From Eledone cirrhosa (lineage: Eukaryota), in assembly GCA_964016885.1 (NCBI GenBank), contig OZ024740.1, positions 97,650,001-97,714,000 of the forward strand: a DNA stretch of 64,000 nt, in the 5' to 3' direction. A program made the translations under genes and the position numbers. Under the pieces are notes generated by a model. The model did no database searches and had not been told where the DNA came from. It saw only the letters and a list, made by a program, of their open reading frames with translations. Positions within the stretch are counted from its first letter, which is position 1, and each line of letters opens with the position of its first letter. Shown piece by piece: positions 2,475 to 62,412 of this stretch.

Positions 2475-3344
2475 ATGAATCAACATCATTTGCCGTCCTT
2501 CGCAGGCGACATCAAGTTATGGTTTTTGTAGGTTGAATGCTATTTTGATTTAACCAAAACCAAAGAACAGCATAAACTGAAGGTACTAGTTAGTGGCTTG
2601 CCTGTGTCGTTGGCATATTCCGTGAAGGATGTGGTAACCAATTTAGCCGCAGACGTTACTTATGGCTCGTTGAAAGGGGAAATTATTCGGAGGAATACCA
2701 AGTCAGCGGAAAGTCGTTTTCGGGAATTGTTAGATGATGCGCAAATGGGTGACAGGACGCCAAGCTCCTATTTGCGACATCTGCGGGAATTGAGCGACTT
2801 CCAGGGGATGGACACTCCATTCCTCAAACAACTATTTTTCTCTCGTTTACCGCCAAGTGCGCAGATGGTCTTGGTCAATAATTTGGAGAGGGAATCGTTA
2901 GATCAACTTGCCGCATCCGTGGATAGAATACTAGAGGTGGACTCTAACAGCAGTCGGCATAATCCTTGTGTGGCTTCTTCTTCTGTTCCCCCACGCAATT
3001 CTTCTGTGGCCGACAGCAAACTGTTGGAGATGATCGAAGCGCTCACCCAAAAAGTGGAGGATTTGACCGTACAACACAGTGAGCCTTCTCAACGTTTGAG
3101 GTACCGTTCGCCTCCGTCTGCTATTCCTCAAAACCGCTACGAGTACCGTTCGCCTCCGTCTCCTATTCCTCGAAACCGCTACGAGTACCGTTCGCCGCCG
3201 TCTTCTATTCATCGCCAGCACTACAACGCAGACAACAATAATTCTTCGTTTTGTTGGTATCATGCTAACTTCGGCAGTAGGGCACAACGTTGTCGCACGC
3301 CCTGTAATTACAAGAGATCGGAAAACGCAAAGCAGAGCCACTAG
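2475..3344 (+). pseudogene. gag: Gypsy Gag (premature TAG at 2529)
   Basis: ATG 2475 is in frame with ORF 2598-3344; reads LPSF..DIKLWF*VE; GDRTPS; C-terminal CWYHANFGSRAQRCRTPC Cys/His motif. Confidence 0.88.
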
Positions 3345-6310
3345 GGGCGGCTAGTGAACTCTGGGAAAATCGACCAAACCGCTCTCTTTTCGTATACGAC
3401 CTGCGGTCGAAAAAACTTTTCCTTGTCAATACTGGCGCGTCGCTGAGTATTTGGCCAGTCAGTTATCTAAAAAAAAACCCATCTGAATCAAATATAAATT
3501 TACGAGCAGTCAACCACACGGCCATTCGAACGTACGGGCAAATTTCGCTTCCTCTTCGGTTAAAAAATTTGCGTCGTGAATTGAAGTGGAAGTTTACTAT
3601 CGCCGACTTGCCATACGCCATTTTGGGAGCGGATTTTCTCCACCATTTTTCCTTGTCGATTGACATCCGCAGACAACGACTTTTTGATGCTAATACAGGC
3701 CTATCGTTCGAGGGTACAAAGCCGGAGATCGCCAGAGTAAGCTCTGCTTTTTTCTTGGCTGAAGTGGGTAACCAGTATCACAGTTTGTTAAAATCATTCC
3801 CACAGCTGACGCAAGGAAGATTACGAATTGCTAGTCCGGATCATGTGATTGAACACTTTATATCCACTACAGGTCCACCTGTTTTCTCACTTCCTCGAAG
3901 ATTATCTATAGAGAAGTTGAAAGCTGCACGGTCTGAATTCGACCACATGCTGGAATTAGGAATAATTCGGCGTTCCACAAGTCCTTGGGCATCGCCTCTA
4001 CATATGGTACTTAAATCTTCTGGTGATTGGAGACCGACGGGTGACTACCGACGCTTAAACGCGATTACTGTGCCTGACCGTTATCCAATCCCGCATTTGT
4101 AGGATTTCGCTTCTTCATTACAAGGTTGCACAATTTTTTCTAGGCTCGATTTGATTCGTGCTTATAATCAGATTCCGGTTAAAAAGGAGGATATTCCGAA
4201 GACTGCTATTGCCACTCCTTTTGGATCTTTCGAGTTCCTAACTATGCCTTTCGGGCTAAGAAATGCGGCTAGTACCTTCCAACGATTTATGGATGATGTT
4301 ACTCGGGGCCTGGATTTTGTGTACACGTATATCGATGATGTGTTGATTGCTAGTTCTTCTCCTGAGCAGCATTCAAAGCATCTGGATCTCGTATTTCGTC
4401 GTTTACAGAGATATAATGTTCGTATTAATGCTTCCAAGTGTGTTTTCGGCTCGACTTCACTAACATTTTTAGGCCATCTGATTGACGCCGATGGTATTCG
4501 ACCTCTTGCTGAGAAGGTTAAGGCAGTATCGGATTTGCCTCCGCCAAGTTCACTGCGACAATTGCGTCAATTCTTAGGCCTTGTAAATTTTTATAGGCGA
4601 TTCGTACCTAATTGTTCCAACTTGCTGTTCTCGTTGACAGAAATTTTTAAAAATTGCCGGCGTAAGAATGGGGACATTTCCTTAAATAAAACGCAGCTTG
4701 AGGATTTTAAAAAAGTGAAAAAGGCGTTAGCGAGCACGTCTTTGCTCGCCCACCCAGTACCCAAGGCCGAGCTATCGCTCTGTGTTGATGCGTCGGATAC
4801 CGCCGTGGGCGCAGTCTTGCGATGGTTTACAAGTGCGATGGTTTACAACAACCACTGGAATTTTTTTCGAGAAAGCTAAAGCCTGCCGAAAATCGTTGTA
4901 GTACTTTCGGGCGTGAGCTTTTAGCAATTTATTTATCTGTGAAACATTTCTCCCATGTTCTGGACGGGAGAGCGTTCACTATTTTCACAGATCACAAACC
5001 GTTGATTTTCGCTTTAAGATCAAAATCTGACAAATATTCGCCTAGGGAAACTAGACATCTGGATTTTGTTTCCCAATACACCAATGATATTCAACATATT
5101 CCGGGTGCTTTGAACACTGCGGCAGACGCCTTGTCTCGTCTCCCGATAGCTTCGATCTCGTCGTCTAACGATATAGATTTGCGTCAAATGGCCATTGACC
5201 AACCCTCGCTTGAATCATTGGATTGCACATCGCCGGAGTTCATTAACTGCAATATGAAATACCTTCCTTTATCAACCGCTTACGGACAGATACTTTGTGA
5301 TATCTCGTTGGACTCACCACGACCTCTCGTCCCAGTTGGTCATCGACGAACTGTATTTCTCGCTTTGCATAGCATTTCTCACCCAGGAGCTACAGCCTCG
5401 GTAAAACTCATAACAGCCAGATTTTTCTGGCCAGATATGAGACGTGACATTGCCGTTCCTGTGTCGCTTGCCAAAAGTCAAAAGTTCATAAGCACGTTAA
5501 AACTCCTCTCGGAACTTTCACCTGTCCTGATGCCAGATTTCGTCACATTCATGTGGACATCGTTCGGCCCGTGGCCGATTAGTCGTGGTTATTCGTATAT
5601 TTTGACGATCGTTGACCGTTTTTCGCGTTGGCCTGAAGCCATCCCTATGACAGATATCACTGCTGAAACGACAGCGCGTACTCTCGTATCTGCATGGATC
5701 GCTCGTTTTGGAGTACCAACCACAATAACGACGGACCGCGGTCGTCAATTTGAATCGAACCTCTTCCGTGAATTAACACAAATTATTGGCGCTACTCGCA
5801 TAAGAACCACGGCATATCATCCAGCATCAAACGGAATGGTGAAATATTTCACAGACAGCTTAAAGCCTCTTTAAGGGCTTCAATGGACTCTTCACGTTGG
5901 AGTGAGTACCTACCTATTGTGTTGTTAGGTATTCGGTCGACAATAAAGGTGGATCTTGGGTTCTCCCCGGCCGAATTGATTTATGGTACTCCTCTTGCGT
6001 TACCGGGGCAAATGCTTGCTCCTGTTGATCTTGCTTCGCAGGATCCCGCTTCCTACGTGTCCCGACTTCCTTCTTACTTCCAAGATTTACCACCGATGGA
6101 CACTAGGAAGTAAACTGTAAAAACTGCCGTCCCAAGGGATATTGCCTTGTGGACACATGTGTTCGTTAGAGACGACGCTGTGAGACCCCCTCTCACACGG
6201 CCGTACTCTGGACCCTATCGTGTGCTTGCTCGTACAGAGAAACATTTCACAGTGGACATTAGGGGGTCCAGGGAAACTATTTCCGTTGATCGCCTCAAAC
6301 GAGCCAATCT
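3320..6310 (+). pseudogene. pol: Gypsy Pol (PR-RT-RNase H-integrase), disrupted
   Basis: Frame -1 relative to gag. Protease FLVNTGA (catalytic D->N at 3428) and ILGADFL; [20 protein letters not shown]; RNase H DAS and TDHKPL; integrase HSISHPG, TDRGRQF, YHPASNG; GPY. Stops at 4100 and 6111; frameshifts near 4820, 5455, 5565 and 5845. Confidence 0.95.
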
Positions 6311-6977
6311 GGACACTGACACAGTGACACTTGAACCACAAATGCCCCCTTCTTTTTCTTCGCCACATACACTCGTTTCTTCGTCGTTGCCCCCCCCCCC
6401 CCCCCCCCCCCCCCACCCCCCCCACCCACCCACCCACCACCAACATACAGAAATACGACCCGTTCAGGTCGAAGGGTGCATTGGCCCCGTAAGCTATGCA
6501 GTACTCTCAACTTCTGAATTGTATTCTTTTTTCTTGCAGTTATTTTTACTGTATATTGAATTTGTTGTATTTTGTACCCTGACTGCCTTTGGTATTTTTA
6601 AGGCATATTATAATTTTTCATTGCATTTTGTAACCTTACTGCCTATGGCATTTTCAATGCCTATTGTTTTTTTTTATCGCATTTGCGACCCTTACTGCGA
6701 ATGGTATTTTTAATGCATTTTGCATTTATTGCTGCATGTGTATAATTATTGCATTTGTTGTATATTTTTTTGTGTAATGCTTGCATGCATTAACCTATTT
6801 CACCTCTATATTGTTCGTTTTGAAACCGGTTTCAACAACTTGTAAAGAGTACCTTGTAAGGCTTTGGCTTCATTGTTATATACTACAGGAATTTTTCTTG
6901 CACCAATTTACAACTTCTAGTTCCTCCATGCCATCGTTTGTTTTAAGATTTTTATTAAAAATCTGGTCGGAGGTGAT

Positions 6978-15235: not shown

Positions 15236-15849
15236 TAATATATATACATATTTTGTTCTATCCTACACCATCTGATGTAGGATAGAACAATGGAGAGTCG
15301 CATAAAATAACATCCTAGTCACCGAGGTGGTCACAGAATGTGGACAAAATGGCTTTCACAATATATAAACAACCTTCCAGTTATCAAACTAACAAACCAG
15401 CCCAAAACTTATAATAAATTCAAGTGAAAACCAACATATATAAATATTAATATATACATAAATATATATATACATAAATATATATACAGAGTTTTTGAAT
15501 AGTTATAATAACATTCGATTCGTATTCAATTATGCAAACAAGCCTCATTTTTAAAGTCATGTCAGTAGAATGGTAGAATGAACCCTTCATTCTTGCTCTT
15601 GTGTTGGCATGTAAACAGAACTGCAGACACTAATGTTTCTGGGTATTGCCCTTTGTCAGTACAGTTCAATGTTCACCTGCCAACTGTCAGAGCTAATGAA
15701 AATATATGCTATTTTCTAAAATATACAGTGACTGATCAGCCTGAAGAGTCACATCCACTGATCAGCCAGATTTGCATATCAACAGACTGGCCAGTCAGTT
15801 TCCTAAATATGAGCGTTAAATGGCCGGATTTGCCATATTCAAATTTAAA

Positions 15850-16112
15850 AAAAAAAAAATTTCGCTCTAGCCAAAGCATTAGAATTCGCTAAAAATTACA
15901 TTAATATATCCGATTTAGAAGAGGATGTAATTTTACATGCCTGAAAAACTCTACTTTTTGCCAAAAATGAATCTTGGGTAAAAAATCTAACCCTTTTGGT
16001 GTCTCTATGGGTTCCTTTCACAGTGCCGATGTGTGTGATTTCGTCCGTTTGTTCCTTCTACATACAATGAGGGAAAAACTTCCAGGTCACACCATCGGTC
16101 TATATCGAGAAA
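15850..16112 (+). pseudogene. Naiad-like Penelope RT fragment
   Basis: Translates to KTLLFAKNESWVK..PFGVSMGSFHSADVCDFV..GLYR, matching the PLE RT pattern FDV.MGS.DGAE.C.LVG...GLYRDD. Confidence 0.7.
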
Positions 16113-16129
16113 ATCGATGATTAAAGTAG

Positions 16130-17790
16130 GCAAACTGACGACCAAGTACCAAACCAACCTCACACTAAAGGAAATCAATTACTTAAGCAACTTCGAAATG
16201 AAAACCAGTATTTCTATGGTTTACCGAAGGTTCACAAATGCAGAGAAATCCAAAACAACATAAAAGGCAAAAATGCATCATATGTTGAAGACCAAAAACC
16301 GACAGATTTAAAATTACGCCCAATTGTTGCTGGTCCAGCCTCAAGAACACAACATCTAAGCAACCTATTAGACATCATATTGAAACCCTTATGTAAAAAA
16401 ATGCCAAGCTTCATCAGAGATGATATGGAATTCCTGAAATATATCACCCAGAAAGTACACCAAGAAACAATCTTAGTTAGCTTTGACGTAACACGCTTAT
16501 ATACTAACATCCCACACGACTTATGATTTGAAGCTGTTGACTTCTGGATTACAAAACACCCAGATTACATTTCAGAGAGATTCGCCAAAAAACTGATTTT
16601 GGAAGGACTCAAACTAGTACTGGAGAACAACCACTTCCTTTTTAATAATGAACTATTTACAAATAAAAGGAATGGCCATGGGTACCAAAGTGGCCCCAGT
16701 ATATGCAACACTCGTTACGGGCCACCTAGAGGCAACATTACATTCCAAACTGCAGGAAACATTCAGTCATGACTTCACCAGCTACATTAATCACAATTGG
16801 AAATGCTACCTAGACGACTGCTTCCATATGCAAATATTCCATTCCATCATAAACAATCTTCACGAAGAAATAAAAATCGCCATGGAATGTAATAAAAAGG
16901 AACAACCATTACTGGATATCCTTATCATTAAGGAAGGTGAACATATCAAAATGGACTTATTTTACAAACCAACAGACACACACTGATACTTGAATTTCCG
17001 TTCAGCACACCCCTCACATACCAAAAGGAACATTCCTTTTAACATGGCAAGACGCATCTGCACCATAGTAACACACCCCACACTACAGGAAAAAAGGTTA
17101 TATGAATTAAAAGAATTCCTTAATAGACAAGAATATCAGGTGAACCTCATCAACACAGCCATCTCCAAAGCCCAGAACAGTGACAACACTGAGAAAAACA
17201 AAGCAACAAAATAGAATGGAAAAACAGTTATCACTTTTGTCATCACTTACAATCCAAGGAACTTCAACATTGTGAAAGCCGTTAAACAATATCTCCTGAT
17301 TCTCCAGCAGTCCCCTAAAATGAATGCACTCATAAAAGACGTACAAATTATATATAGTAGACGCAAAGTACCCAACCTAAAGAAACTGCTTACCAAGGCA
17401 AAATTTACGTCTAATAATGAAGCAATCCAAGTTAAGAAATGTGGGGACCCTCGATGCGGAACTTGCGAAGACATTGAAGAGGGTGAACAAATCTCCTTTA
17501 AAAACAAACAGTTAATGCACACATTATATGCAAAACCAAAATCTGTGCAACCTGCCCACAATGGTGAAACCGGAACGGGTCTACATGACAGAGTTCGAGT
17601 ACATAAACAACAAATTAGAGACCCCTCTGTCAGAAACAACACATGCAGTGAACACTTCCCAACATGCAGAAAAGGGAAAATTCACAATTTTCCCCTTCTT
17701 TAAAATATGGTCGGACAACGAACATTTCTGAAAATATAAAGATGAATTCTTTATTAGAAAATACAATCCGCTACTGAACACAAAAAAGTG
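16130..17790 (+). pseudogene. Penelope-like element (Neptune-like) RT + GIY-YIG endonuclease, disrupted
   Basis: FYGLPKVHK, LRPIVAG, LVSFDV..LYTNIPH, QIKGMAMGT, YLDDCF, FYKPTD, SAHP.HTK.NIPF, KCGDPRCGTC, GETG..L..R..HK; several stops and frameshifts. Confidence 0.9.
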
Positions 17791-17984
17791 ATATTCCATC
17801 TTCAAGTAACGGGATTCTCCCCTTCTCTTTTCTTTAAAAACATCTCATATTGAAAAAGAAAGATAGTTGATGACACCCGTACTTTCAAACATTCGATTGC
17901 TGAAGAGAAGAAAAACCCTCAGAGGTTCAATAACATTTCATTAATTCCCCGTTCCTCACACCAATGTATATGTGAACTTAAACA

Positions 17985-30676: not shown

Positions 30677-31910
30677 TTCGCAGAGTAAGGAGCGTATTAA
30701 AGTCACATCTGAACAGTAGGAATGCCACAAGTGTAGTAAATACCCGAGCTGTGTCTATTATTAGGTACAGTGCGGGAATTCTGAGATGGAATGTTGCTGA
30801 ACAAAAAGAAATGGATAGGAAGACTATGAAGCTATTGACTATCTACAACATGTTCCACAAGAGGAGGGATGTCAATAGAGTCTACTTAAGGAGATCTGAA
30901 GGTGGAAGAGGTCTTATCAGCATAGAGGACTGTGTTCAGATGCAGAAAAACAACCTACACAAATACGTACGTGACTGATAGTAAGAAGCCAATGCTCGGA
31001 ATTGTACTGAAGGGTAGGACAATAGACCAGGGGATGTTTCAAGGAGGAAATAACAACGAGAAGAAAGAGTAGCCTCCATGAAAAATCCCTTCATAGTACC
31101 TTCTTTGAGAAAACTGATTTCAGAGATCCACAGACATGGAACTGGTTCAGAAGAGAAGACCTTAAAAAGGCTACAGAAGGAATGCTAATGGCTGCGCAAG
31201 AGCAGGCCCTCAAAACGAAGTGACTGAAACACCATATTTACAAGGAGGAGGCTAGTCCACTGTGCAGGATCTGTGGAGTGAGGGAGGAGACTGTGGCTCA
31301 CATTGTATACGAGTGTAAACACCTAGCCCAGACTCACTATAAAGGCTGGAGACATGATGTGATGGGCAGGGTGATCCACTGGCACCTATGCAATGTAAAC
31401 AATTTACCACATTCTGAGAAGTGGTATGAGCATAAGCCAGAGTCGGTGATAGAAAACGATCAGGTGAAGGTGCTGCGAGATTTTAGGATACAGACGGACA
31501 AGAAACTGGAACACAATAGACCTGGCCTGGTGGTTTTGGACAAGGAAAAAAGATCGTGCCTGATTGTGGATGTGGCCTGCCCATTCGACACGAGAGTGCA
31601 AGAGGAGAGGGAGAAAATTAACCGATACCAGGACTTAAAGTGGGAGGTAAAAAGGATTTGGAACTGCTATGAAGTCAAAGTGGTCCCGATTGTTATAGGC
31701 GCACTAGGTACTATCTCAAAAATTTTCCAGGGATGGTTAAAGAAAATTGGCCTCGCCCCGCTTTTTTGGAACACCTCAAAGGCATACTTGCTGGGAACGG
31801 CAAGAACCCTTCGATACGTCCTGGATATCTGAGGCTGCAGGTACCGGCTTGATATTCATTTCAACAAACTTTCCAGTTAAATAACATCAATGACTGAAAC
31901 TCAAAGAACA
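30677..31910 (+). mobile_element. 5'-truncated R4/Dong-clade non-LTR retrotransposon (REL endonuclease)
   Basis: RVYLRRSEGGRGL; CRICGVREETVAHIVYEC (CCHC), RHD, RPGLVVLD (RPD motif mutated), IVDVACPFD, KINRYQDL, VPIVIGALG; stop at 31832; flanked by (AAT)n. Confidence 0.92.
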
Positions 31911-34048
31911 ATAATAATAATAATAATATTAAAAATGACTATAACATCAACAACTTGAGGAATAATTCGGTGAAATAAATATGACCTAGATCTACAATTT
32001 GGTATGCTCCGCCAGCATCTTTACCTATTAAAACACCTTTAGCACACTTATTTTTTAAAGCCTTGGATAAATGCTTCCCTAGATCACATAAATATTACTT
32101 TATCTCCAATAGACACAGTTAAACTCTCTTATTCAACAGCTATGAATATTGCTCAAAATATAGCACAAATAAATAGTGAACATCTTAATTTGAACCAACA
32201 AATAATTAGCGATAATAACAATAATAATAATAATAATACATTAGTTAATGGGAAGAACAATAATAATAGTTTAAATACGAATAATAGTAGAACACCTTTA
32301 AATAATAATAATAATAATATGAATAGTTTAGGGTAACATCGAGAAGAAATGTAACTGTAGAAGGAAGTCAGAATGTCCCTCAGAAAATAACTGCCTTGAC
32401 AAGAATCTAGTATATAAATGTACCATTAAGACAAATAATAATATATATAACTACATTGGTGCCACTTCATCTAAATTTAAAGATCGTTTGTACAATCATA
32501 AACATTCCTTTTCTAAACCAGATAAACAATTTTCAACCTCACTCTCACAATCAATATGGTCTTTAAAGGACAAGAATATTAAATACTCCTTCTCTTGGAC
32601 TCGGTTAAAGATTGCCAATTCCTATCGGAACGCATCCATTTCGCTAAATTGCAATCTTTGCAATCTTGAGACTCTATTGATAATTACAAATTATGACAAT
32701 TTAATAAACAAGAGAAATGAATTATTCAGCAGCTGCCAACATAAAATCGGTAAAACATTCCAGGCATTGTACAAGTTTCGATAAAATATTGACAATTAAT
32801 ACATTTAAAAATATATATATAATTTTTGCCTTACTGGGGTAATAATTTATTGATGTTTTATCTATTAGAATTATTTCATTAAGAGTCTCTGTATCCTATG
32901 TTTTTATTAGGACAGTTCAATATTTAACTAGACAATTGTTGATTTATGGTTTTGAAATATCACTAGATTTCAGAGTAGATACATGGTTTAAATGTTGACA
33001 TATGGTGAATGAGTTATCTTCTCTTTGTTTACATTCTTCGTAAATATTTTTATTCTGTTTGAATAGCTTGCTAAATTATATTTGACATGAATTATGCAGT
33101 TTAATAATATAAGAATATCTTTAAAAGGAAACTATAATAATATGTAATTACAGAAGTAAATATAAATTAAAGAAATAAAACGTTTGAGAGTAAATATAAC
33201 TGAAATTTAATCCTGTAATTAAATGATAATTAAAGAATAGAAATGATTTTATAAAGAGAATATCCTAATTAAATTAAATAATTCGGATAAAAAATGATCT
33301 TAATATATTATATATATATATTGATGGTGATATATGCATGTATTTTAATATATATTTTAATACATGTTTAATAATTATTTAAATATGCTTTAAAGATAAT
33401 TTATTTTAGAAGTTGTAACAAAATACTTAAGGAATATATTAACTAAACCAAATATTATAATCTATAATGAGTTAAATTAAATTATGTAAATTTTTAATTA
33501 AACTAAATATGTGACGGCTATAAAAAGTAATGTATATTGATTAATTTTGATATAATATATAAGTATAATTAGCTTAAGCATAATCAAATACAAGAGATAT
33601 TCAATGGTTTATGGCAATTGATTGGCTGTCTCAATTGACCTAATATTTGAAAACAACGGTTTTTTATATCTATCCCCTTATATTTGATGGTCCTGTGTTT
33701 TTATTTACACTCCCCTTCCTTTTACTTTCCAAACACATTCCCTTTCTTTTGTGGTTATTTCTTCTTTCTTCTTATTTCGTTTTTTAATATATTTCTTCCT
33801 CTATTCATCCATCCATCCATTTATTTAGTTATGTTTATTTAAATATTTATGTATGTATTTATTTTGTCTTGCCTTTACTCCTCTTTACACCCTCTCTTAT
33901 ATATCTAATTCGCTCCACGTCCTTGTCTTATTTAAGCTTATATTATTATTTGTGGTATATAAATGTTGAGATTTGATGAATAAATCACTGCCAATATAGG
34001 TATTGAACTATCAAGACCGTAGAGGTATGTCATATATCAAATCATATA

Positions 34049-34641: not shown

Positions 34642-35110
34642 GACCTATTTTCACCCCTAAAATAACCTTTTCTTTCGTCATACTCCTTCCATTCAAAACT
34701 GAAATCTGCCTTCTTCTACCCCTAAATTAAAGTTCCATTACTACTATTATACCATTTGGCCAGTTATTACCTTTCTACTGGTCAATTCAAAACCTGTTCC
34801 CAAACAGACCTATTATATTAAATCTTTGTTGGTTTTATTCAATGAACAAATATAATTATTTCTGAAGACAGCATATGACCTATTCTCATCCCTAAAATAA
34901 TCTTTCATTTATAATATTCTTTCCATCCAAAACTGAAATCTACCTTCCTCTACCCCTAAATTAAGGCTCTATTACTACTATTGTACCATCTTGACCTTCA
35001 CTATCTTTCTATTGGTCAATTCAAAACCTGTTCCCAAACAGACCTATTGTATTAAATCTTTGTTGGTTTTTTTCAATAAACAAATATCATTATTTCTGAA
35101 AACAGCATAT
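34642..35110. repeat. ~235-bp imperfect tandem duplication
   Basis: GACCTATT.TCA.CCCTAAAATAA at 34642 and 34877; both copies end TATTTCTGAA(G/A)ACAGCATAT. Confidence 0.88.
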
Positions 35111-35226: not shown

Positions 35227-35505
35227 ATTTTTTTATATAAGGAACTGTTTCTATGTTTATTCATTATTTTTATTAATTTATCTTGACTCTGTTTTCCTGT
35301 ATTTTTCATCGAAAAAATTTTTTGAATACATCTCTTTTCATGATATTCGGATTACATTGAGTTCTTCATACGGATTGGACACTACCGTACATTTTGGTAG
35401 ATTTATCTACATATATATATATATATATATACATATATACATATATACATATATTCATATATATATACACATATATGCATATATATATATACATATATAT
35501 AAATA

Positions 35506-35557
<52 letters not shown>

Positions 35558-35966
35558 CATAAGTTGAAAAAAATGAAAACGAAATTTCATTTCTCACTCT
35601 TAGTATGGCACTTACTTAAATGTAAGTATGTATGTATACGTACATACATATATGTATACAGACGTACAGTAGCATGCATATACATATATATATATATATA
35701 CATACATATATATACTTACAGGTACACATACATATATGCACGCATCAGTTTAGCGGAAGCTTATTATAACGCCGCTTTGTTCGTTTGTCAACAAACTGAA
35801 CAGCCTGAATTTATGCCATACGGTGTTTAGGCAACCACGTCACCTTAAGGCAACCACGTCACCTGACCGATTTAACTCACTCAATATGCAAATTAGGCTG
35901 CTCAGCCGTTAATTTTCATAAGGAAAGTATATACTTTCGAACGTTCAACTATCTGGCAGATGGGTA

Positions 35967-36011
35967 AACGGTGCTGATGATAGCTAACAAGCTTGAAACT
36001 AGTACATCGTT
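35967..36011 (+). ncRNA. Minimal type-I hammerhead ribozyme, unit 1
   Basis: AACGGTG-CTGATGA-TAGCT AACA AGCTT-GAAA-CTAG-TA^CATCGTT: 7-bp stem I, full core, palindromic ACTAGT stem III, GUA site at 36002-36004. Confidence 0.82.
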
Positions 36012-36436
36012 CCTGTGTCAGTGTTGAACAAAAAGGTGACGTGGTTGCCTTAACACCGTATGGCATAAATTCAGACTGTTCAGTTTGTTGACAAACGAAC
36101 AAAGCGGCGTTATAATAAGCGTCCGCTAAACTGATGCGTGCATATATGTATGTGTACCTGTATGTATATATATGTATGTATATATATATATATGTATATG
36201 CATGCTACTGTACGTCTGTATACATATATGTATGTACGTATACATACATACTTAAATTTAAGTAAGTGCCATACTAAGAGTGAGAAATGAAATTTCGTTT
36301 TCATTTTTTTCAACTTATCGTTTTCGGTATGCCTGACCGATTTAACTCACTCAATATGCAAATTAGGCTGCTCAGCCGTTAATTTTCATAAGGAAAGTAT
36401 ATACTTTCGAACGTTCAACTATCTGGCAGATGGGTA

Positions 36437-36481
36437 AACGGTGCTGATGATAGCTAACAAGCTTGAAACTAGTACATCGTT
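36437..36481 (+). ncRNA. Minimal type-I hammerhead ribozyme, unit 2
   Basis: Identical motif 470 nt downstream. Confidence 0.82.
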
Positions 36482-36906
36482 CCTGTGTCAGTGTTGAACA
36501 AAAAGGTGACGTGGTTGCCTTAACACCGTATGGCATAAATTCAGACTGTTCAGTTTGTTGACAAACGAACAAAGCGGCGTTATAATAAGCGTCCGCTAAA
36601 CTGATGCGTGCATATATGTATGTGTACCTGTATGTATATATATGTATGTATATATATATATATGTATATGCATGCTACTGTACGTCTGTATACATATATG
36701 CATGTACGTATACATACATACTTAAATTTAAGTAAGTGCCATACTAAGAGTGAGAAATGAAATTTCGTTTTCATTTTTTTCAACTTATCGTTTTCGGTAT
36801 GCCTGACCGATTTAATTCACTCAATATGCAAATTAGGCTGCTCAGCCCTTAATTTTCATAAGGAAAGTATATACTTTCGAACGTTCAACTATCTGGCAGA
36901 TGGGTA

Positions 36907-36951
36907 AACGGTGCTGATGATAGCTAACAAGCTTGAAACTAGTACATCGTT
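36907..36951 (+). ncRNA. Minimal type-I hammerhead ribozyme, unit 3
   Basis: Identical motif 940 nt downstream. Confidence 0.82.
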
Positions 36952-37218
36952 CCTGTGTCAGTGTTGAACAAAAAAAAAAAAAAAAAAAAAAAGGTGACGT
37001 GGTTGCCTTAACACCGTATGGCATAAATTCAGGCTGTTCAGTTTGTTGACAAACGAAAAAAGCGGCGTTATAATAAGCGTCCGCTAAACTCATGCGTGCA
37101 TATATGTATGTGTACCTGTATGTATGTATATGTATGTATATATATATATATGTATATGCATGCTACTGTACGTCTGTATACATATATGTATGTACGTATA
37201 CATACATACTTACATTTA

Positions 37219-37274
<56 letters not shown>

Positions 37275-37414
37275 TTATCACATACATAAAATTAAATTAA
37301 ATCAAATCAAAGATATATATATGCGTTGCAACTGTTCACTTTTAAGCTCAATGAAGAATTAATAAATTAAAATCAAAAAATCAGAGCATTATAGAGATTT
37401 TATATATATATATA

Positions 37415-38881
37415 TCTTTATATATATAAAAGCGAGGATGTGTGTGTGTCTGTGTGCAACATTGCATGCTTAAGGCTTTCACAATTACGAACTGAATTTG
37501 ACCAAAGTTTATGTGCACGTTGCACAGGTCGCTAAGATTGTCACATCACAAATATTTTTCAAATCGACCCACGTTTAGCAATAAAAAATCGATATCAAAA
37601 TTATCGGTAGAAAAATTGATATAAGGGAGATAACAAACTTTATTGACAATCCTTATAAAAAGGGGAGATAACCAACTTTTCAGAGATATAAACATCACAT
37701 TCATTTGAAGATAAATCACTAATATTATCGTTTGATTCTTGTTTATTCTTTGTTGCACTTTCAAAGTTAAAAAAACACTCGTTGCTTTAACTTGTTTCAC
37801 TATATTAAGTGTTAATTTTCGCATCACGGTTAGCTGTATTAACGATCAGCTTCTTCAGCTTCTTCCTGGATGTCCACGGATATATAAATCTAGTGATACC
37901 GTATGTGATCCACAGGATGCGGTCAATTATCCAGTTGAATTTCTAAATTCTTTAAATCCTCGTGGTTTACCTCCTAATATATTGGTTCTGAAAGAGGGAA
38001 CACCAGTTATTTTGCTGAGAAATATCACTCCTCCAAAACTATGCAATGGTACACGCCTTGTGGTTAAAAAACTGTCTTCACTTAGTATTGACGCTACCAT
38101 TCTATCCGGATGTGGAAAAGGCGAGGATGTGATAATAACAAAAATTAGCCTGACTACATCAGGCGTGGATACTCCCTTCTCCTTTCGCCGAACCCAATTT
38201 GCCCTTCGTGTTGCCTTTGCAATGTCCATAAACAAGTCGCAAGGTCAAACTGTGTCCGTCGCTGGAATTCACTTGGATCAACCTTGTTTTTCGCACGGAC
38301 AATTCTACGTTGCTTACTCACAAGTTGGCAGTCGATATAATCTCTTTGCGTTTGTTCTGAAAGAAAAACAAAGAATATCGTCTATCCTGAAGTGCTTTAT
38401 TGTTAACAAAAAAACTTATTACAGCTCTGCCTTGACTTCACCTTACTCATTACAAAACATACCAATGAATATGTCATGCAGGATATTTTGGATTATAAGT
38501 TACAAATTTAACCATACACAGCAAAGGATGCTCTCAAAGAATATATTTTCTCTTATTCTACTCTCATTGTTTTTTTGTTTGTATACAACTCTGCTTTCAT
38601 TACAACTTTTTGTACTTTAGCAAAACTGCCTGTTTTTTTACAGATGTGCAACGTGTATTGTCTTTAATTATTTGTATAACTACATCCTGTTCAGTGTTTT
38701 CCTTCATTATTAGCATAGTTTTATGTGTACAAAGAAAGCACTAAATTTTCATTTGCATTAATTATTGAAGACTTCTGCTTATTTTGACAGGTTGGGGACA
38801 AATAATGTTCTTCTTTTACTTCCGAGCTGTATATTCTTAGCATAATTTCAAATCCCGAACAACGCCGGGTAAATCTGCTAG
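37415..38881 (+). mobile_element. Non-autonomous Helitron (~1.47 kb)
   Basis: 5' A|TCTTTATATATATAAAAG; 3' hairpin CCCG-AACAACGC-CGGG followed 8 nt later by CTAG|T; no TSD; carries a PIF1 fragment. Confidence 0.92.
37830..38365 (+). pseudogene. Helitron RepHel C-terminal PIF1-like helicase fragment
   Basis: YPVEFLNSL...GLPP, PVILLRN, LCNGTRL, QFALRVAFAMSINKSQGQT, FSHGQFYVA; no Rep domain or Walker A. Confidence 0.92.
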
Positions 38882-38964: not shown

Positions 38965-39200
38965 AACAATAAGCTTGAAACTGGTACAGCGTTCCTTTGT
39001 CAGTGTTGAACAAACGAGCAACGATGGTTGCTGGACACTGCGGCTTAATGCGCGATGTTTGTTTACAAACACACCGAGCATTATAATAAATGTTCGGTGA
39101 ATACATACGTACATATATATATGTGTGCATGTATGTATATATATATATATACATACTACTGTACGTCTGTATACATATATGTATGTACGTGTACATGCTT
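38965..39200 (+). repeat. Diverged partial copy of the 470-bp HHR repeat family
   Basis: AAGCTTGAAACTGGTACAGCGTTCCTTTGTCAGTGTTGAACAA...TACTGTACGTCTGTATAC. Confidence 0.75.
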
Positions 39201-50819: not shown

Positions 50820-52445
50820 ATAATATAAGATCAAAAGATGGTTAAAAGAGTTCCAAGTATTTTATTATGCGCATTTCAAAATCAAATATCATCATGGGAT
50901 GATATTTGCGTTCTCATCAGATAAAATAGGGAGACATGATATGAAGCTTAAAAAACACTTGTGAATAGTGAAGTTTTAAATCAACATATGAAAAATAAAT
51001 TAATATTGATGTATGCGATTGGGAAAAAGTGAGGGGGTGGGGGTGGAAAAGGTAAGAAAGAGGAAGAAATAAGAGTAAAGGATGGTGGGGGAGGAGTATA
51101 AGAAGGAAGGATGAGAGAGGAGAAGAGAAGGGTGATAGATAGAGAGATAGCCTTTACAAGTGAGAAAAAAATATATTGTCTCACAGAGAGAAATTAAAAA
51201 GCCGTTGGGAGATAATAGATAATTTTAAAGATTTTGAAATTAAAAGTTAATGAGGTTTATGCATGAAGAAAAAGGAATTAATGAGGTTTATGCATGAAGA
51301 AAAAGGAATTAACGTTTGTATATTGAAGGGTTTAATAATATGTGCGAGGAAAAGAATTTATTAATATGTATTATTAAAATAAAAATATTAATGATATTAA
51401 GGATATAATGTGAAAAGAAGGAGAAGAATGAATAAGTTATGAATTTAGAGGAATTAGTTAGGGTTTAAGTTTGTTTTTATGTAATGTAATATGTGTACGT
51501 AAATAGTTTGTTTAAAATGAGCGCGGAAGGAACGAAGAAAAGAATGTTTAAGGAAGAAAATATCTAACATCAAAAAGTATATATGTTTACGAAATATTTT
51601 CTAATGGTAATAATATAATATATTAAAAGAAATTAGTTAGGGTTTAAGTTTGTTTTTATGTATTGTAATATGTAAAAGTAAAATTAAGTAGTAGGTTTAA
51701 AACGAGCATGAAAGGATGGAAGAGAAATACCAACTTAAAAGAACTAACACAGCACTCTCGTAACTCATATGGTCCTTGAAAGACAAAAATATTAACTATA
51801 ACATCTCTTGGAGGAAGGTTTGTTCAGACTTTCCCTACCTGAATTCTTCCCTATCCAGAACATGTAATCTCTGCCTAGCCGAAAAATTTACCATTATATC
51901 TAATTTCAATTCTATAATAAATAGACGCACGGATTTATTTTCTCTCTGCTTGCATAAATTCCAGAGAACATTCCATAAAGTATACAGCTAATATCGTATT
52001 ACCTTACTAGTTTAAAATCCTTTTTCTCAAAGGCTTATATATCTTTTACAAATATACCTATCTTTCTACCTTATTTCAATATTATATATTATATAATCAA
52101 ATTTACTCATTCTTTATTATTTTCCTTTCTTCCTTTTTTCTTTTTAATTTCTAACCTCTAATCTATACTTTTTCTTCCCAACTACTTCTCAATTCTTATT
52201 ATTACTCACCACAACATTATCCATTCTCTCCATATTTCCTCATATCATTGGACATAAAAATTATTCTTTCAATACCTTATAATATTACCATTAGAAGTCC
52301 TTCGTAAACATATAAATTTTTGACGTTAGATTTTGTTCTTCCTTAAATTTGTTCATATCTCTTCCATCCTTTCATGCTCGTTTTCAACCTACTACTTAAT
52401 TTGACTCATACATATTTCAATACATAAAAACAAACTTAAACCCTA
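50820..52445 (+). mobile_element. Naiad-like PLE 3' fragment with inverted pseudo-LTR
   Basis: 51740-51991 IWSLKDKNINYNISW...CNLCLAEK...IINRRTD...CLHK; 51560-51726 is inverted relative to 52270-52445; HHR on the minus strand at 50860-50926. Confidence 0.8.
50860..50926 (-). ncRNA. Type-I hammerhead ribozyme motif
   Basis: Minus strand: TTTTAT-CTGATGA-stem II (CAAATATCATC/GATGATATTTG)-GAAA-TGCGC-ATA^ATAAAA; palindromic ATGCGCAT. Confidence 0.75.
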
Positions 52446-53344: not shown

Positions 53345-55007
53345 TTTTTGGCACTTCATGACAACAATACAAACTATATGCCATAAGGTTGTCCTGGAGA
53401 AAAAGGCCAAACAGACACAAAAATCTTATTCCCAGAGCCAGGAAAATCCTTATAAGACGAAGAAATATATTCTCAAAACAGTTGAATGCACAACAAAATA
53501 ACAAGAAGGAATCCTATCTGAAACATGCACTACTTGAAATTGAAACTTTACTTAAACTTTCCCAAGAAAAGGAGAGGGCAGAAAGAGAAAGCAGGGCCAT
53601 AGAAAATATTAAAACAAACCCTAAGGCCTTCTTTAAATTTGCAAAAGAGACTGCCACGGTACTGCAAGATTGGGTCACTCTTCCATAAACATGGTTGATT
53701 AACCGAGGATCCTCAAGGGATAAGTGAAATACTGAATGAACAGTAAAATAGTGTGTTCACACCCCGACTGAGGCACATGCAAATAACAAAGCCAGAGGAT
53801 ATCTTTGATGCCACAACACCCAGAGAGCTAAAAGTAGGCACAATATGACCTATCCATAAAGGAGGAAGCAAAGTGGAGGCCAGAAACTACAGGCATGTCT
53901 CCCTGATATCAGATATCAGTAAAGTCATGGAACGAATTATCAGAAAGAAACTGATCACGTTCCCCGAGGAATATGACCGCCTAACTAACAGGGGGAATGG
54001 CTTTTTACCAGGAAGAAGCTGCCTTACACAGCTGCTACAACACTATAACTGAGTAATGAAACAATTTCTAGACAGCTCACATGTGGACGTGATATATCTT
54101 GACTATGCGAAGGCCTTTGACAAGGTCGACCATAGAATGAAACTACAAAGATTTGGCATAATTGGAAAAGTAGGTGAGTGGCTGCATGATCTCTTAAAAA
54201 ACAGAAGCCAGACAGTTTCAGCCACTGGGGCCCTCTCAAAGGAAACATCAATAACAAGTGGGGTGCCTCAGGGCACAGTCTTGGAACCACTAGTGTTTTT
54301 GGTGGCTCTCTCAGACACGCCCTCTGTAGTACATACAATATCCCTCACTAGCTATTCTAATGACACAAAGGTAGCTCAGGCAATCAAAAATCCAGCTGAT
54401 ACTGGCCATTTACAAGATCTGGATACCTTATACAAGTGGTCTGAGGACAACAACATGAAGTTTAATGCTGGAAAATGTCAAGCCCTACAACACCAGCCTG
54501 CAAACACAAATACAATACAACACTGCTACACTGGACCAGAAGGGATCGAAATTCCCATGTCAAAATCTATACGAGACCTGGGAATAGACATGAGCGACGA
54601 TGCATATTTTTCTTCGCACATCTTGAGGGTGGCAACAATGTGCAGATGACTTGCTGGCTGAATCTTGAGGACTTTCCTGACTAGAGACCGAGAGACCATG
54701 TTCATACTATGGAGGATATTTGTCCTAAGCTGCCTGGACTACTGCTCTAGCTGTGGTTACCCCATAGTATCAAACTAACCATAGAGCTTGAGGCAATCCA
54801 ACAAAGCTACACCAAGAGGATTGCCACGATGAAGAAGATAAGTTACTGGGAGTGACTAAAAGAATTGAAATTCTACTCCTTGGAACGAAGAAAGAAGAGA
54901 TGCACAGTGATATACATATGGAAAACCCTGGAGGGACTAGCACCAAACTGTGGCATTGAAAATTTGACCAACTATGAAGAGGACGTCACTGTGTGGTGCC
55001 AAATGTC
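53345..55007 (+). mobile_element. CR1-clade LINE ORF2 relic
   Basis: IKTNPKAFF, NYRHVSL, VDVIYLDYAKAFDKVDH, SGVPQGTVL, YSNDTKV (from YADD), WSEDNNMKFN, YSLERR; many disruptions. Confidence 0.88.
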
Positions 55008-56226: not shown

Positions 56227-56966
<740 letters not shown>

Positions 56967-57020: not shown

Positions 57021-57107
57021 TATATATATATGTATATATGTAAGGGAAAATGATGAAATCGAAAATGCAACTGGAGTCTTTTTTAAAAGAATATATATAT
57101 TTATTTG

Positions 57108-57150
57108 GCTCCTTTACCGGTTTCGCAGTTCTTCTGCTTTTCAAAAGTAG
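57108..57150 (-). ncRNA. Minimal type-I HHR, U3-A8 core
   Basis: Minus strand: CTT-TTGAAAA-GCAG AAGAA CTGC-GAAA-CCGG-TA^AAG, then AATAAA. Confidence 0.72.
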
Positions 57151-57232
57151 AGTTGAGATGGAGGGTCTGTGGTTTTTCTCACATCTCGCTGGTTTTTGAA
57201 TGGTACTTGTTTTATATGGAAAAAAGTGGCTC

Positions 57233-58068
57233 GAAATGCCAGGTTTTTATAGAAGTAATTTGATTGGTTGGTGAATAAGTATAATAAATTTCGCGCCAGT
57301 CCGCGTTACTAAGTTCTTCAAAGAAAGGGGTGGGTGTGCTCAGGTTGTTTTTTCATATATGAATGAAGCTTCGTCGGTTGATACAGTCACGTGAATAAGC
57401 ACATCAGCTTTCGCGCCAGTTTGTGTTTGAATTTCTTGTTACTTATCTGAATTCTGACATCCCAGGGCACCAGCCATATTCACTGAAACAGAACAATTCT
57501 CCCCATCCCATTTCTCTTGACCATTATCTTTTGTTTGGCACAAAATTCTCTAAATGGCTACAAAGTAAATTCACAAATACGGGCGCGAAATTGAATGAAC
57601 CTGTTTACGTGACAGTCATAATTTCATATATAACCAATCAAATTACATTTCAGCACATCAATCATACTCAGAACAACTCTTTCCATCCCTTTTTTCTTGA
57701 CCATTATCTTTTGTTTGGCACAAAATTCTCTAAATGGCTATAAAAAATTCCAAAATACGGGCGCGAAATTTAATGTACTTGTTCACGTGACAGTCATAAT
57801 TTCATTTGTAACCAATCAAATTACATTTATAAAAAAAAAAAACCTTCGTGAACCACATTTTTTTATGTAAAAAGAAACTCAAACACAAACTGGTGTGAAA
57901 GCTGATGTGCTTATTCATGTGACTGCATCAATCAACCAAACTTCATATATGAAAAAACAATCTGAGCCCGCCCCCGTTGTTTGAAGAACTTTGTAACGCG
58001 AACTGGCGCGAAATTTGTTATACTTATTCACCAACCAATCAAATTACTTCTCTAAAAACCTGGCATTT
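57233..58068. repeat. ~200-bp inverted repeats enclosing a 180-bp tandem duplication
   Basis: 57233-57438 versus 57872-58068; internal repeats at 57489 and 57669. Confidence 0.88.
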
Positions 58069-59116
58069 CATCGCTTTAAAGACCATGTACCTCCGGTTGG
58101 TGCGAGCAACGGCTAAAAAAAGTCGTTGGGACACGTAAATAAAGGGGACGCGAGGGTAAACAAACAAAATGGTGAAGCAACAGAAAGTGAGGAAGAAAGA
58201 GACAAGTCCCAGATTTCTATGAATTTAAATTCGGTGAAATCGTGAACGAGAGAATAAAGACCATCAAACCTGGTTGAAATGTGAGCAAGGAAGGAATTTC
58301 GCACAGGTCTAACGGGAGGAAGAAGGGGTCTGGTCTGCGAATTCGGTAAACTTAAGTTCTGTGAAATCGTAGACACCAACCAGAGGTATATGGGCTTTAA
58401 AGCGATGAAATGCCTATGATGGTTGGAAGATCACTGATGAAGGACAAACTTTTTTCATATGTAACCCATTTGCAACTCCGCAGCGCCCTTATTATCATAT
58501 TTACACATATTTTTTCCTCTGCTGCTACACGTCTTTTTCGTTCTATGTATCTTTACCCTTTCTAGCAGTCTCTCTCTCTGTTAGCCTCTTCCTCACCCTT
58601 CACTCACTCATTCTCTGTCACTACCTCTCCTCCTCCTCTTTCTTCCCGTTTGACCTGTGTGTAATTCTTTTCTCCCGCACGCTGGCCAAGCTGGTATGAA
58701 TTTTTTCTCTCTCTCGTCTACGATTTCACAGAACTTATGTTTACCGAATTCGCAGACCAGACCCCTTCTTCCTCCTGTTAGACCTGTGCGAAATTCCTTC
58801 CTTGCTCACATTTCAACCAGGTTGGATGGTCTTTATTCTCTCGTTCACGATTTCACCGAATTTAAATTCATAGAAATATGGGACTTGTCTCTTTCTTCCT
58901 CACTTTCTGTTGCTTCACCATTTTGTTTGTTTACCCTCGCGTCCCCTTTATTTACGTGTCCCAACGACTTTTTTTAACCGTTGCTCGCACCAACCGGAGG
59001 TATATGGTCTTTAAAGCGATGAAATGCCTATGATGGTTGGAAGATCACTGATGAAGGACAAACTTTTTTCATATGTAACCCATTTGCAACTCCGCAGCGC
59101 CCTTATTATCATATTT
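58061..59116 (+). repeat. Relative of the 26.5-kb family: inverted 5' piece plus direct repeat (614-bp spacing)
   Basis: 58061-58374 is inverted relative to 58717-59028; CTGATGAAGGAC at 58434 and 59048. Confidence 0.88.
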
Positions 59117-59900
<784 letters not shown>

Positions 59901-60903
59901 ACAAACAAACAAACCGAGAATTATAATAATGTTTAGTAAGTATTAATACGAAATGCACTTCAACCGAATTCTATATTATAAATTCACTTAAATAATTATT
60001 GTGTCCTCTTGAGTTCGTTATGAGTCTCTTTTTTTTATAAAAGGATGCCACAGAGTGTACGATAGATAATGATTACAATATTTTTGAGCAACAACACCAG
60101 TCCCACACTTTTGAAGCTTTATTATAACATTCTGTGGCTCTTTTGAGCTTGTGCATTTTTCAGGTCTAGTTTAATATTTGTTTAAGGCAATGCTTGTAAT
60201 AATATCGTTGTAATGTAATTAGATTATATAATTGTTATTTTATAAATGATCTTATAAATATTATTGTAAGATGTATAAAAATGTTTTCAGACTTTTAATA
60301 GTTTATATAAATTTAAAAAATCATATATAAATTAACAATATAACTTACCAAAACGAGAAAAATATTTTGATGATAAAACGACGAAATACTGGAGGAATAT
60401 TCGAAAGCGAAACGATAAATAAACGTGGAAACAAAGTGGCGGATGCTTTTGAGCAACAATTACTCTCGTTGGTCGATTAGACGATGAAATTAGCCAATAA
60501 GACGATACATTACAAAAGATGTTTGGGAGGCATCACCACGGCCAGCGATACCCCTTGAAATATTTATTCACAAATTACGCATGTATGTCACATAACAACA
60601 TCATGTCAGACACGCAGACTTAAAACATTCTGTTGTTAGTCACTGCGTGTCTAACAGATATATAAATGAAAGGATTACAAAGGAGAATATGTACTGTTAG
60701 AACATGTTTACGGTATACAAAACACCTACGTACGTTTCGCCCGAAAAGGGCTTCTCAAGGGTATACAAATCTAGAGAGTCTACGGTACGGGGCCCAGGAG
60801 GGGTTTTAGGGTGATAATCACATCAGAATTCATTCTTAGATCAAACAGGCATGCAGTTATTGCCACAGAGCAAGGGGAGTAATTCTGGCCGGTGTTTGAA
60901 TAA

Positions 60904-62412
60904 ATCTCGAGGCTTTCCGCCAACGAAGACATCTTCAGCCAAGCGGCTGACTACTACAATAAAGCCTTGATAGATGCCGGATATAACCGAAGAATCTCCT
61001 ACCTCCTTAACGCTAACTCTAGAAACCACCCCCATCATAGGACTAATGTTATAGTAAGCCATACCTATAACTGAATACGCAGTGGCCCTGACGGAGTAAA
61101 TAATTATAGTATAGAGAATCGCCCTAAGAAACACGGCCGTACCGTTAACTACATGTGTGGTGGTGTAGAGGACCTACCCCATAATAAGGGCAATGATACA
61201 GGTAACGGTAGCTGCAGTAGCCTACTAGAATTATTCCCTACCTATAAGATTAACAATAGCGATGGCCTATTACCTACACCCTCTAACCAGCGTTTAGCTA
61301 CATGTGAACGTAACGGAAGGAAGGCGAGTGCACCCGAACATAAAGCGAAGGGGACGCGCAATAGACTGCAACAGAGTAGCAACAATAAGAAAGGTTACCT
61401 AGCCAACTCGATCCGTAGCAAGCCCACAGTTACGCGTAACCGCCAACGTAATGTCCTATGGTTCCATCCTCCCTACTCTTGGAGTGTGGCCTCTGATTTA
61501 CCTAGGATAGTCTTCGAAGCCTTAGAGAAGAACTACCCACCCAACCATAAATACAGGAAAATCCTCAATAAGAACAATATTAAAATATCCTTCTCCACTA
61601 CACCTAATCTAGCAGACATCATAGGGATAACCAATTACAGTAAGGTCACCAAAACACAACACAATAGCAGAAGTAGGTCTAGACTTGACAGCAACCCTAA
61701 TAGCCTTAACGTTTCCCTAGGAGCACCCGATAGTGTTGGCGGCAGCTCCAACAGATGCAACCGACATAACCGCGGCGAGACTGGGGAGCATGCTGGTGAC
61801 CTGTATGGGTCATGAGGCGGCAATAGAAGGTGCTGTGGCGTGTGGGGTAATAATTGTACTACCCCGCATGCCCTATGATATAATAGTACTAACTACAGAG
61901 ATAGAGGCGGTGGCGTGGATAACAACATAGGTAGCGATAGTAATAGCCTTACTTCGGGCACTAGGGGCGACCGCGACCGACAATGCAACTGTCGAGATTG
62001 GGGAGACTGCCCGCTCAGGGGAAAGTGCCTGACAGATAATTTTATTCATAGGTACACCGTAACTAGCTATAATAGTGTTAAGCATTATATAGGGGCCACC
62101 TCTGGCTCGTTCAAAACTAGATTTAGAACACATCTCCAATCTTTTAGAAACAAGAAACTAAGATACTCCACGTCACTCGCCAATTACATCACAACATTAA
62201 AAGACTCCAACATCAGCTTCTCCCCATACTAGGAATTTGTCAGCAGGGCAACACCGTACAACTTCAAGAGGAAATGCGAGCTCTGCCTCATGGAACTTTA
62301 CCATATCGTAAGAGCACCCCTTGAACTCATCAACAGCAGAGTAGAATCGGTGATAAACTGCAGACACAGAATACAGCAGTCCTTTTTTAGTTGGAACCCG
62401 GTTGAGACCTGA
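60904..62412 (+). pseudogene. Naiad-type RT thumb, linker and GIY-YIG endonuclease
   Basis: One frame: ISRLSANEDIF..YYNKALIDAGY, RNVLWFHPPYS, IKISFSTTPNL, CNCRDWGDCPLRGKC (CxCx5Cx5C), HYIGATSGSFKTRFRTH, KCELCLME, LINSRVE..NCRH; in-frame TGA at 61072, 61813 and 61876, TAG at 62230. Confidence 0.9.

Follow-up and report, generated by a model that had tools for sequence, protein, structure and literature searches.

The window, a stretch of 64,000 nucleotides of the Eledone cirrhosa genome (assembly GCA_964016885.1, 3.0 Gb; contig OZ024740.1, here C1, positions 97,650,001 to 97,714,000), carries at 35559-37216 a single insertion made up of an inverted arm and 2.8 tandem units of 470 nt, with (TA)n on both sides (Table 1). 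Tandem Repeats Finder placed a repeat of period 470 at 35862-37218 (2.8 copies, 96% matches), and a type I hammerhead descriptor matched three times within the array. An original prediction made from the letters of the window had described a retrozyme-like array here, and its coordinates and anatomy hold, namely the 470-nt period, the three hammerheads, the inverted 5′ piece and the (TA)n on either side. Its 'three near-identical units' are correct as to the hammerheads, but only two of the units are complete, and its 'exact 470-nt units' are a property of the window array, whereas sampled units of the same family (family 1) range from 420 to 551 nt. The further claim that 470 nt is longer than typical has to be withdrawn, as this length lies just over the 150-450 bp given in Cervera 2020 (PMC7229834) and within the 51-972 bp given in Li 2026 (10.64898/2026.07.22.740005).

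The insertion is oriented with end B on the left and end A on the right. It terminates not in LTRs but at fixed internal sites that abut (TA)n, and because both ends lie within (TA)n a target-site duplication is not readable. Open reading frames in the unit are short and of low complexity (the longest, 85 aa), no tRNA gene was found in the unit, and GC content is 0.33 over window positions 36001-38000. The two full units have two changes in common that are missing from the third unit and from the inverted arm, and these two equal units probably arose by local duplication.

Table 1 Features of the insertion and of separate copies in the window; unit positions are numbered from the predicted cut site
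Feature	Position	Strand	Basis or detail
Left (TA)n target tract	35411..35558	.	Sequence, repeat analysis
Inverted 5′-truncated arm, unit positions 29-314	35559..35846	-	97.6% identity to unit; long fixed end B faces outward
Filler of 15 nt at the head-to-head junction	35847..35861	.	Repeats adjacent arm end (microhomology-type join)
Partial unit (positions 328-470) opening the direct arm	35862..36004	+	Contains 5′ part of hammerhead 1
Type I hammerhead 1	35967..36011	+	Core start 35974, predicted cut after 36004; stem I prolonged via internal loop
Monomer 1, 470 nt from cut site to cut site	36005..36474	+	Predicted branched fold bringing both ends together
Monomer 1, internal TA-rich hairpin	about 36134-36250	+	
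Monomer 1, fixed ends	A about 36254, B about 36317	+	
Type I hammerhead 2	36437..36481	+	Core start 36444, predicted cut after 36474
Monomer 2, 470 nt	36475..36944	+	3 positions differ from monomer 1; two private substitutions in common with it
Type I hammerhead 3	36907..36951	+	Core start 36914, predicted cut after 36944
Last partial unit, positions 1 to about 254	36945..37216	+	A-run grown to 23; short fixed end A faces outward
Right (TA)n target tract	37217..37272	.	
Separate truncated copy, another subfamily	38965..39200	+	First core half missing; 4 of 6 private changes A>G
Separate older copy, intact hammerhead	56330..56850	-	Core 56830, GUU site; ends at B in (TA)n; short repeat interrupts near 56500-56695
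Separate older copy, 1.5 units	59215..59900	-	Core letters kept, stems damaged; ends at B in (TA)n

Two of the separate copies had been predicted to keep the core. The one at 56794 (minus strand) does so and passes the descriptor with its GUU site; the one at 59495 retains the core letters, but stems I and II are damaged and the descriptor failed. The copy at 38965 does not have the first half of the core. The window also contains three broken Penelope-like elements (PLEs) of at least two families (15700-17800, 31900-32800 and 60800-62400), broken LTR-retroelement-like gag-pol frames (2532-6713), two non-LTR reverse-transcriptase relics (31224-31832 and 54053-54649), a Helitron-like Pif1 helicase fragment (37736-38620) and a 234-bp two-copy tandem (34642-35110). 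Clustered direct and inverted repeats with hammerhead-like half motifs at 57100-59100 are probably truncated PLE termini.

Ribozyme build, conservation and abundance

As matched by the descriptor, each hammerhead combines a GUA triplet with a 7-bp stem I, a 4-bp stem II with a U.U at its base and a stem III of 2 bp carrying a palindromic hexamer; the original prediction had recognized the 7-bp stem I, the U-U mismatch, the palindrome and the GUA site. No hammerhead model was matched in an Rfam scan of the window even at E<=1; the 138 weak matches, none at the gathering score, were nearly all to miRNA models on TA-rich sequence and were discarded as TA-repeat artefacts. The label 'minimal', also part of the prediction, does not fit when terms are used as Cervera and de la Pena (2014) defined them: there the minimal PLE hammerhead (min-HHR) has a helix III of conserved nucleotides only, a long helix II, a short helix I and G10.1-C11.1. 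The Eledone ribozyme has a 2-bp helix III with a loop, a 4-bp helix II with U.U and a 7-bp extended helix I and is, judged by its sequence, a metazoan type I hammerhead of the canonical form, its palindromic helix III being weak.

Patterns of change across the family argue that the ribozyme is under selection, with a conserved core and covarying helices. All 11 core positions are the same in three lineages that are 78, 61 and 62% identical elsewhere (chance of three-way identity about 0.002), in line with the original prediction, which had named core conservation and genome copy number as checks. Double-sided changes were counted in 8 of 22 hammerhead pairs among 12 variants, a level reached by 0 of 500 shuffles and compared with 0-4 in slid controls; the 12 rows are related and no probability is therefore assigned. 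Over the whole monomer, 22 of 126 consensus pairs have double-sided changes (6 rows). The monomer folds with a z of -9.7 against shuffles and, with the TA block removed, the three lineages give -3.5, -4.7 and -10.4; each is predicted to take a similar branched shape in which the monomer ends are joined through stem I. Such strict conservation of the core and of the end-joining fold implies that the ribozyme matters for spread.

With a U.U where stem II starts and a helix III of 2 bp, the ribozyme is nevertheless predicted to have weak activity. Axolotl ribozymes of the same build showed 6-22% cleavage as monomers, and axolotl HHR_Amex2 has the same U.U at the base of stem II (Cervera 2020, PMC7229834). 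Hammerhead repeats of newt and salamander satellite 2, as described in that paper, likewise have a weak palindromic helix III needing a dimer, but their units are of about 330 bp and belong to a different lineage and sequence. Of nine predicted retrozyme dimers of Xenopus, only one cleaved (Li 2026, 10.64898/2026.07.22.740005).

Genome-wide, the core pattern has 24,602 exact matches, a 3′ motif 30,501 copies and the tag of one young subfamily 4,461 matches, each against 0 for its reversed control, all of these being counts of units and not of insertions. Multiplying the core count by unit length, the family would occupy about 11 Mb, or 0.4% of the genome. The description of the family as young suits the window subfamily, whose best 40 matches are 99-100% identical to it, but not the group, in which lineages are 78% and 61-62% identical. 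A sister family, found in a flank, has 466-nt units of about 61% identity, 4,241 cores and a G-C at the base of stem II, and keeps the core and fold through compensatory changes; one of its arrays (C1:5738327-5752443; L233-L252, L325 and L326) has 31 units in one arm.

One RNA run gave 0 reads on the unit, but unique host exons were likewise without cover. Runs labelled as three other organisms (kind unrecorded) contained 65-73% of the unit's words, which is no sign of expression; several subfamily variants were present in one of them, and related species may also harbour the family. The main text of the Octopus vulgaris repeat annotation does not use the words 'ribozyme', 'hammerhead' or 'retrozyme', although repeat libraries or supplements may list the family as an unclassified SINE or Penelope fragment. 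No paper on a cephalopod retrozyme, on edited retrozyme copies or on a two-end rule came up in our literature searches. The family is predicted to supply octopods with an abundant structured RNA and ADAR substrate that repeat annotations have seemingly missed.

Fixed insertion ends and A>G hypermutated copies

Insertions of the family follow one plan, in which two arms meet head to head with their 3′ ends outward and the outer ends lie at unit position A (about 250) or B (about 314), two fixed sites about 64 nt apart that each sit just 3′ of a conserved hairpin, one site being used per insertion end. One A and one B end were present in 63 of the 67 insertions with both ends classifiable (4 exceptions; p 1e-14), out of 96 junctions examined, of which 29 were unclassified or at a locus edge, and with one row pair being a segmental duplicate. 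These 63 include the sister family, where all 8 two-armed loci of 8 obeyed the rule, their tail measuring about 70 nt; locus L013 was B/B by one method and A/B by another. The loci were chosen by sequence patterns, not randomly, and lie mostly on contig C1 and, for the greater part, within C1-C4. Ends run into (TA)n in 123 of 134 cases. The inner 5′ ends of the arms are scattered, with 0 of 192 at positions 1-3, that is, the cleavage site was read through, and the arms mostly join with an overlap or gap of a few bases. A pile-up of arm starts at positions 1-5 was a query-start artefact that disappeared on realignment.

An inverted 5′-truncated copy, a one-sided tail and a (TA)n bias are traits of PLEs (Craig 2021, 10.1101/2021.04.23.441226; Arkhipova 2013, PMC3846280), and the Eledone insertions carry this type of footprint, with an inverted 5′-truncated copy and a tail at one end only. 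Endonuclease-bearing PLEs as described in these two papers resemble them in the head-to-head inverted copy, the one-sided tail and partial tandems, and the (TA)n preference is stated for Naiads. The Eledone family differs from them in having no ORF in its unit, a tail of about 64-70 nt as against 30-40, a near-invariant A/B rule and a canonical, not minimal, hammerhead. The tandem and inverted structures of PLEs are called unexplained by Craig 2021.

Edited copies bear on the template strand. Among 314 segments, one locus (both arms) had 18 of 22 changes as A>G on the ribozyme strand and none had at least 5 T>C. A pattern requiring two A>G in the core gave 6 matches, all with further A>G (5 loci, two of them probably one duplicated locus), and its T>C mirror gave 0; other searches added the edited loci L254, L319 and L324. 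Since the core is lost through some of these edits, they cannot be put down to selection, and because the clusters occur on the ribozyme strand only, we infer that ADAR-edited sense RNA was reverse transcribed. ADARs disfavour an A that follows a G, and in one arm of L254 none of 20 private A>G changes is preceded by G (this and the per-arm edit counts below are hand counts). ADAR genes are present in the genome, the ADAR2 deaminase region being 95% identical to that of O. vulgaris and 75% to those of gastropods, which places the host among the octopods; coleoid editing of repeats is documented (Albertin 2022). A reading of background changes was dropped as proof, since the A>G over T>C excess (118 vs 72 without the hyper-edited locus) comes from units that are not independent, and G.U-tolerant selection yields the same bias. 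Hypermutated genomic copies were seen at L254 (C1:313896034-313899064), L078, L316 and L319; they also show a few A>T changes at edited sites, which misreading of inosine during reverse transcription could explain.

Fixed 3′ ends, scattered 5′ ends and strand-specific A>G clusters together indicate dispersal via an RNA intermediate. Arkhipova 2013 (PMC3846280) proposed self-priming on an antisense PLE template and left the question open; the edits seen here favour a template of sense polarity.

Proposed mobilizing enzyme and form of the template

That the element is a retrozyme mobilized by a Penelope-type enzyme, as the original prediction proposed, is supported by the genome-wide data, and we hold this with high confidence. 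By its sequence the element would join the known metazoan non-LTR retrozymes of coral, mussel and axolotl (Cervera and de la Pena 2020, PMC7229834), with which it has in common non-coding, AT-rich tandem units with type I hammerheads in thousands of copies, a predicted highly paired circle and PLEs in the same genome. Cleavage and circular RNA were demonstrated for those retrozymes and are predicted for the Eledone family, which is known from genome sequence; conversely, two-armed insertions fixed at both ends in (TA)n, a (TA)n hairpin inside the unit and edited genomic copies do not feature in the results and discussion of that paper. Vertebrate retrozymes are alike in having tandem type I units (51-972 bp), from monomers to long multimers (Li, Clavereau and Pollet 2026, 10.64898/2026.07.22.740005); the sampling described there includes no molluscs. 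Their link to PLEs consists of pLTR homology and co-occurrence, whereas that of the Eledone family is the integration footprint, with no homologous pLTR found. PLE mobilization of retrozymes has had the status of a candidate model (de la Pena 2020; Cervera 2020, PMC7229834). What is new here is the strict two-ended insertion rule together with editing scars, which make PLE-type integration testable.

Autonomous PLEs occur in the same genome. One family, which we take to be Neptune-like, has an intact 796-aa reverse transcriptase (RT) plus GIY-YIG frame in several copies (L199-L202, for example L200:2259-4646, minus strand), and the closest named relatives of this protein are bivalve proteins. 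At two loci its insertions were seen to be two-armed and TA-flanked, with a spacing of about 40 nt between the two ends, and the descriptor found no canonical hammerhead in it. A coding-like stretch lies upstream of its frame and its 3′ region is very long and TA/TG-rich. The 3′ regions of two PLE families (60 loci) showed no homology to the unit and no continuous ORF was found beside units in 152 loci; among the two PLE families examined, the unit does not appear to be the pLTR of an autonomous PLE. An apparent unit-PLE fusion at L013 is more simply an insertion into a PLE. Several other hammerhead-bearing repeat families were seen, at window position 50920 (minus strand), in L204-L231 about 1.1-1.4 kb past the GIY-YIG region and in L050; some of these lie at the 3′ end of the second PLE family, and one minimal-type motif occurs as an inverted pair in (TA)n.

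The mechanism that we favour has array transcripts self-cleaving, best as dimers, and being ligated to mostly monomeric, sometimes dimeric circles, from which a Penelope-like RT/GIY-YIG enzyme would make DNA copies at (TA)n targets. The nuclease would open (TA)n, and each target end would pair with a UA located immediately 3′ of one of the conserved hairpins (at A or B) and prime cDNA on the sense RNA; the RT would then make a varying number of rounds of the circle, and microhomology would join the two 5′ ends. Arrays later also lengthen or shorten through local DNA duplication, as that of the window probably did. Taken as a whole, from retrozyme to Penelope-type enzyme and circular RNA template, we consider this explanation likely, the circular template being favoured over the others and not proven.

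A pool of monomer and dimer circles fits the edit and array data best. The variant 16A>G, with 50 occurrences genome-wide, is carried by each of the 10 units, in both arms, of one insertion and by each of the 5 units of another. Young arrays contain up to 15-19 units, near-identical within and between arms, with locus-specific microsatellite alleles common to all units of both arms. At L254, 16 of 19 edits around the ribozyme occur in both arms, as do 6 of 7 at positions 205-305 (hand count), a region that precedes the cut site in one arm and follows it in the other. At L324, two successive units have five private A>G in common, and in one 14-unit array of ABAB pattern the alternating unit types differ by three A>G only. 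At L316 the edits of the two arms, read by eye, agree downstream of the cut site and differ upstream of it, and these unshared upstream edits, which a single monomer circle could not yield, argue against such a circle there. Two independent edited loci have 11 of 27 edit sites in common, and a strong ADAR site preference weakens the argument from L254. ABAB arrays as general proof of dimer circles were rejected, as several of them show mixed change types.

A more specific reading is that both cut (TA)n ends prime on the same sense RNA circle, at two structure-defined sites, and that ADAR inosines copied into DNA are molecule barcodes proving rolling-circle reverse transcription of monomer and dimer circles. 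The shared circle would account for the two arms and for the tail at one end, and the genome would be a fossil record of individual Penelope-type integrations. We offer this tentatively and give it somewhat less than even weight; if true, it would settle the template strand, the origin of the tail and circular intermediates for retrozymes and, by extension, for PLEs. Tens of thousands of short young copies with two fixed insertion ends, and strong host RNA editing that marks template molecules, make such models separable by counting in one assembly.

The main rival to circles is a linear, uncut multimeric array transcript of the same element, copied by a Penelope-type enzyme, with cutting rare and circles mere by-products. 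It accounts for read-through of the cut site and for the unshared edits of L316, would let ABAB patterns be inherited from source arrays, and suits the weak build of the ribozyme and the existence of long arrays as sources. We nevertheless consider it unlikely, because the longest uninterrupted 16A>G array has the variant in every unit and both arms while no longer uniform source exists among the 50 matches, because no single offset on a linear multimer gives the edits common to both L254 regions, and because strict conservation of the core and end-joining fold implies a role for the ribozyme in spread. Even less probable is a cleaved linear monomer as template, with the RT jumping end to end at the cut site and tandem units stemming from different molecules. 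End-to-end template jumping is known for some non-LTR RTs, and the arms of L316 are alike downstream and unlike upstream of the cut site as it would have them, but the lack of any pile-up of arm starts there (0 of 192), the uniformity of rare variants over 10 units and the microsatellite alleles common to both arms of young arrays all speak against it. A satellite or fold-back DNA repeat with a relic hammerhead, dispersed purely at the DNA level (through extrachromosomal DNA circles, unequal exchange or MITE- or Helitron-like moves), could draw on the local duplication in the window, a mosaic 50-kb array and the inverted ends, but is very improbable and as a mode of dispersal largely refuted by the strand-specific A>G clusters, the fixed 3′ ends with scattered 5′ truncation, the compensatory changes in the ribozyme and termini that, being unequal by about 64 nt, are unlike terminal inverted repeats; it remains valid for array growth after insertion.

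The unit appears to carry its own target. At L149 and L151 (C3:200075267-200084700), a 14-unit ABAB arm has seemingly been inserted in the (TA)n tract inside an older copy. At C3:12272000-12323500, an array of about 50 kb has roughly 100 units, is mosaic for one variant and shows a single orientation at the ends seen, as in satellite-like growth of a retrozyme insertion.
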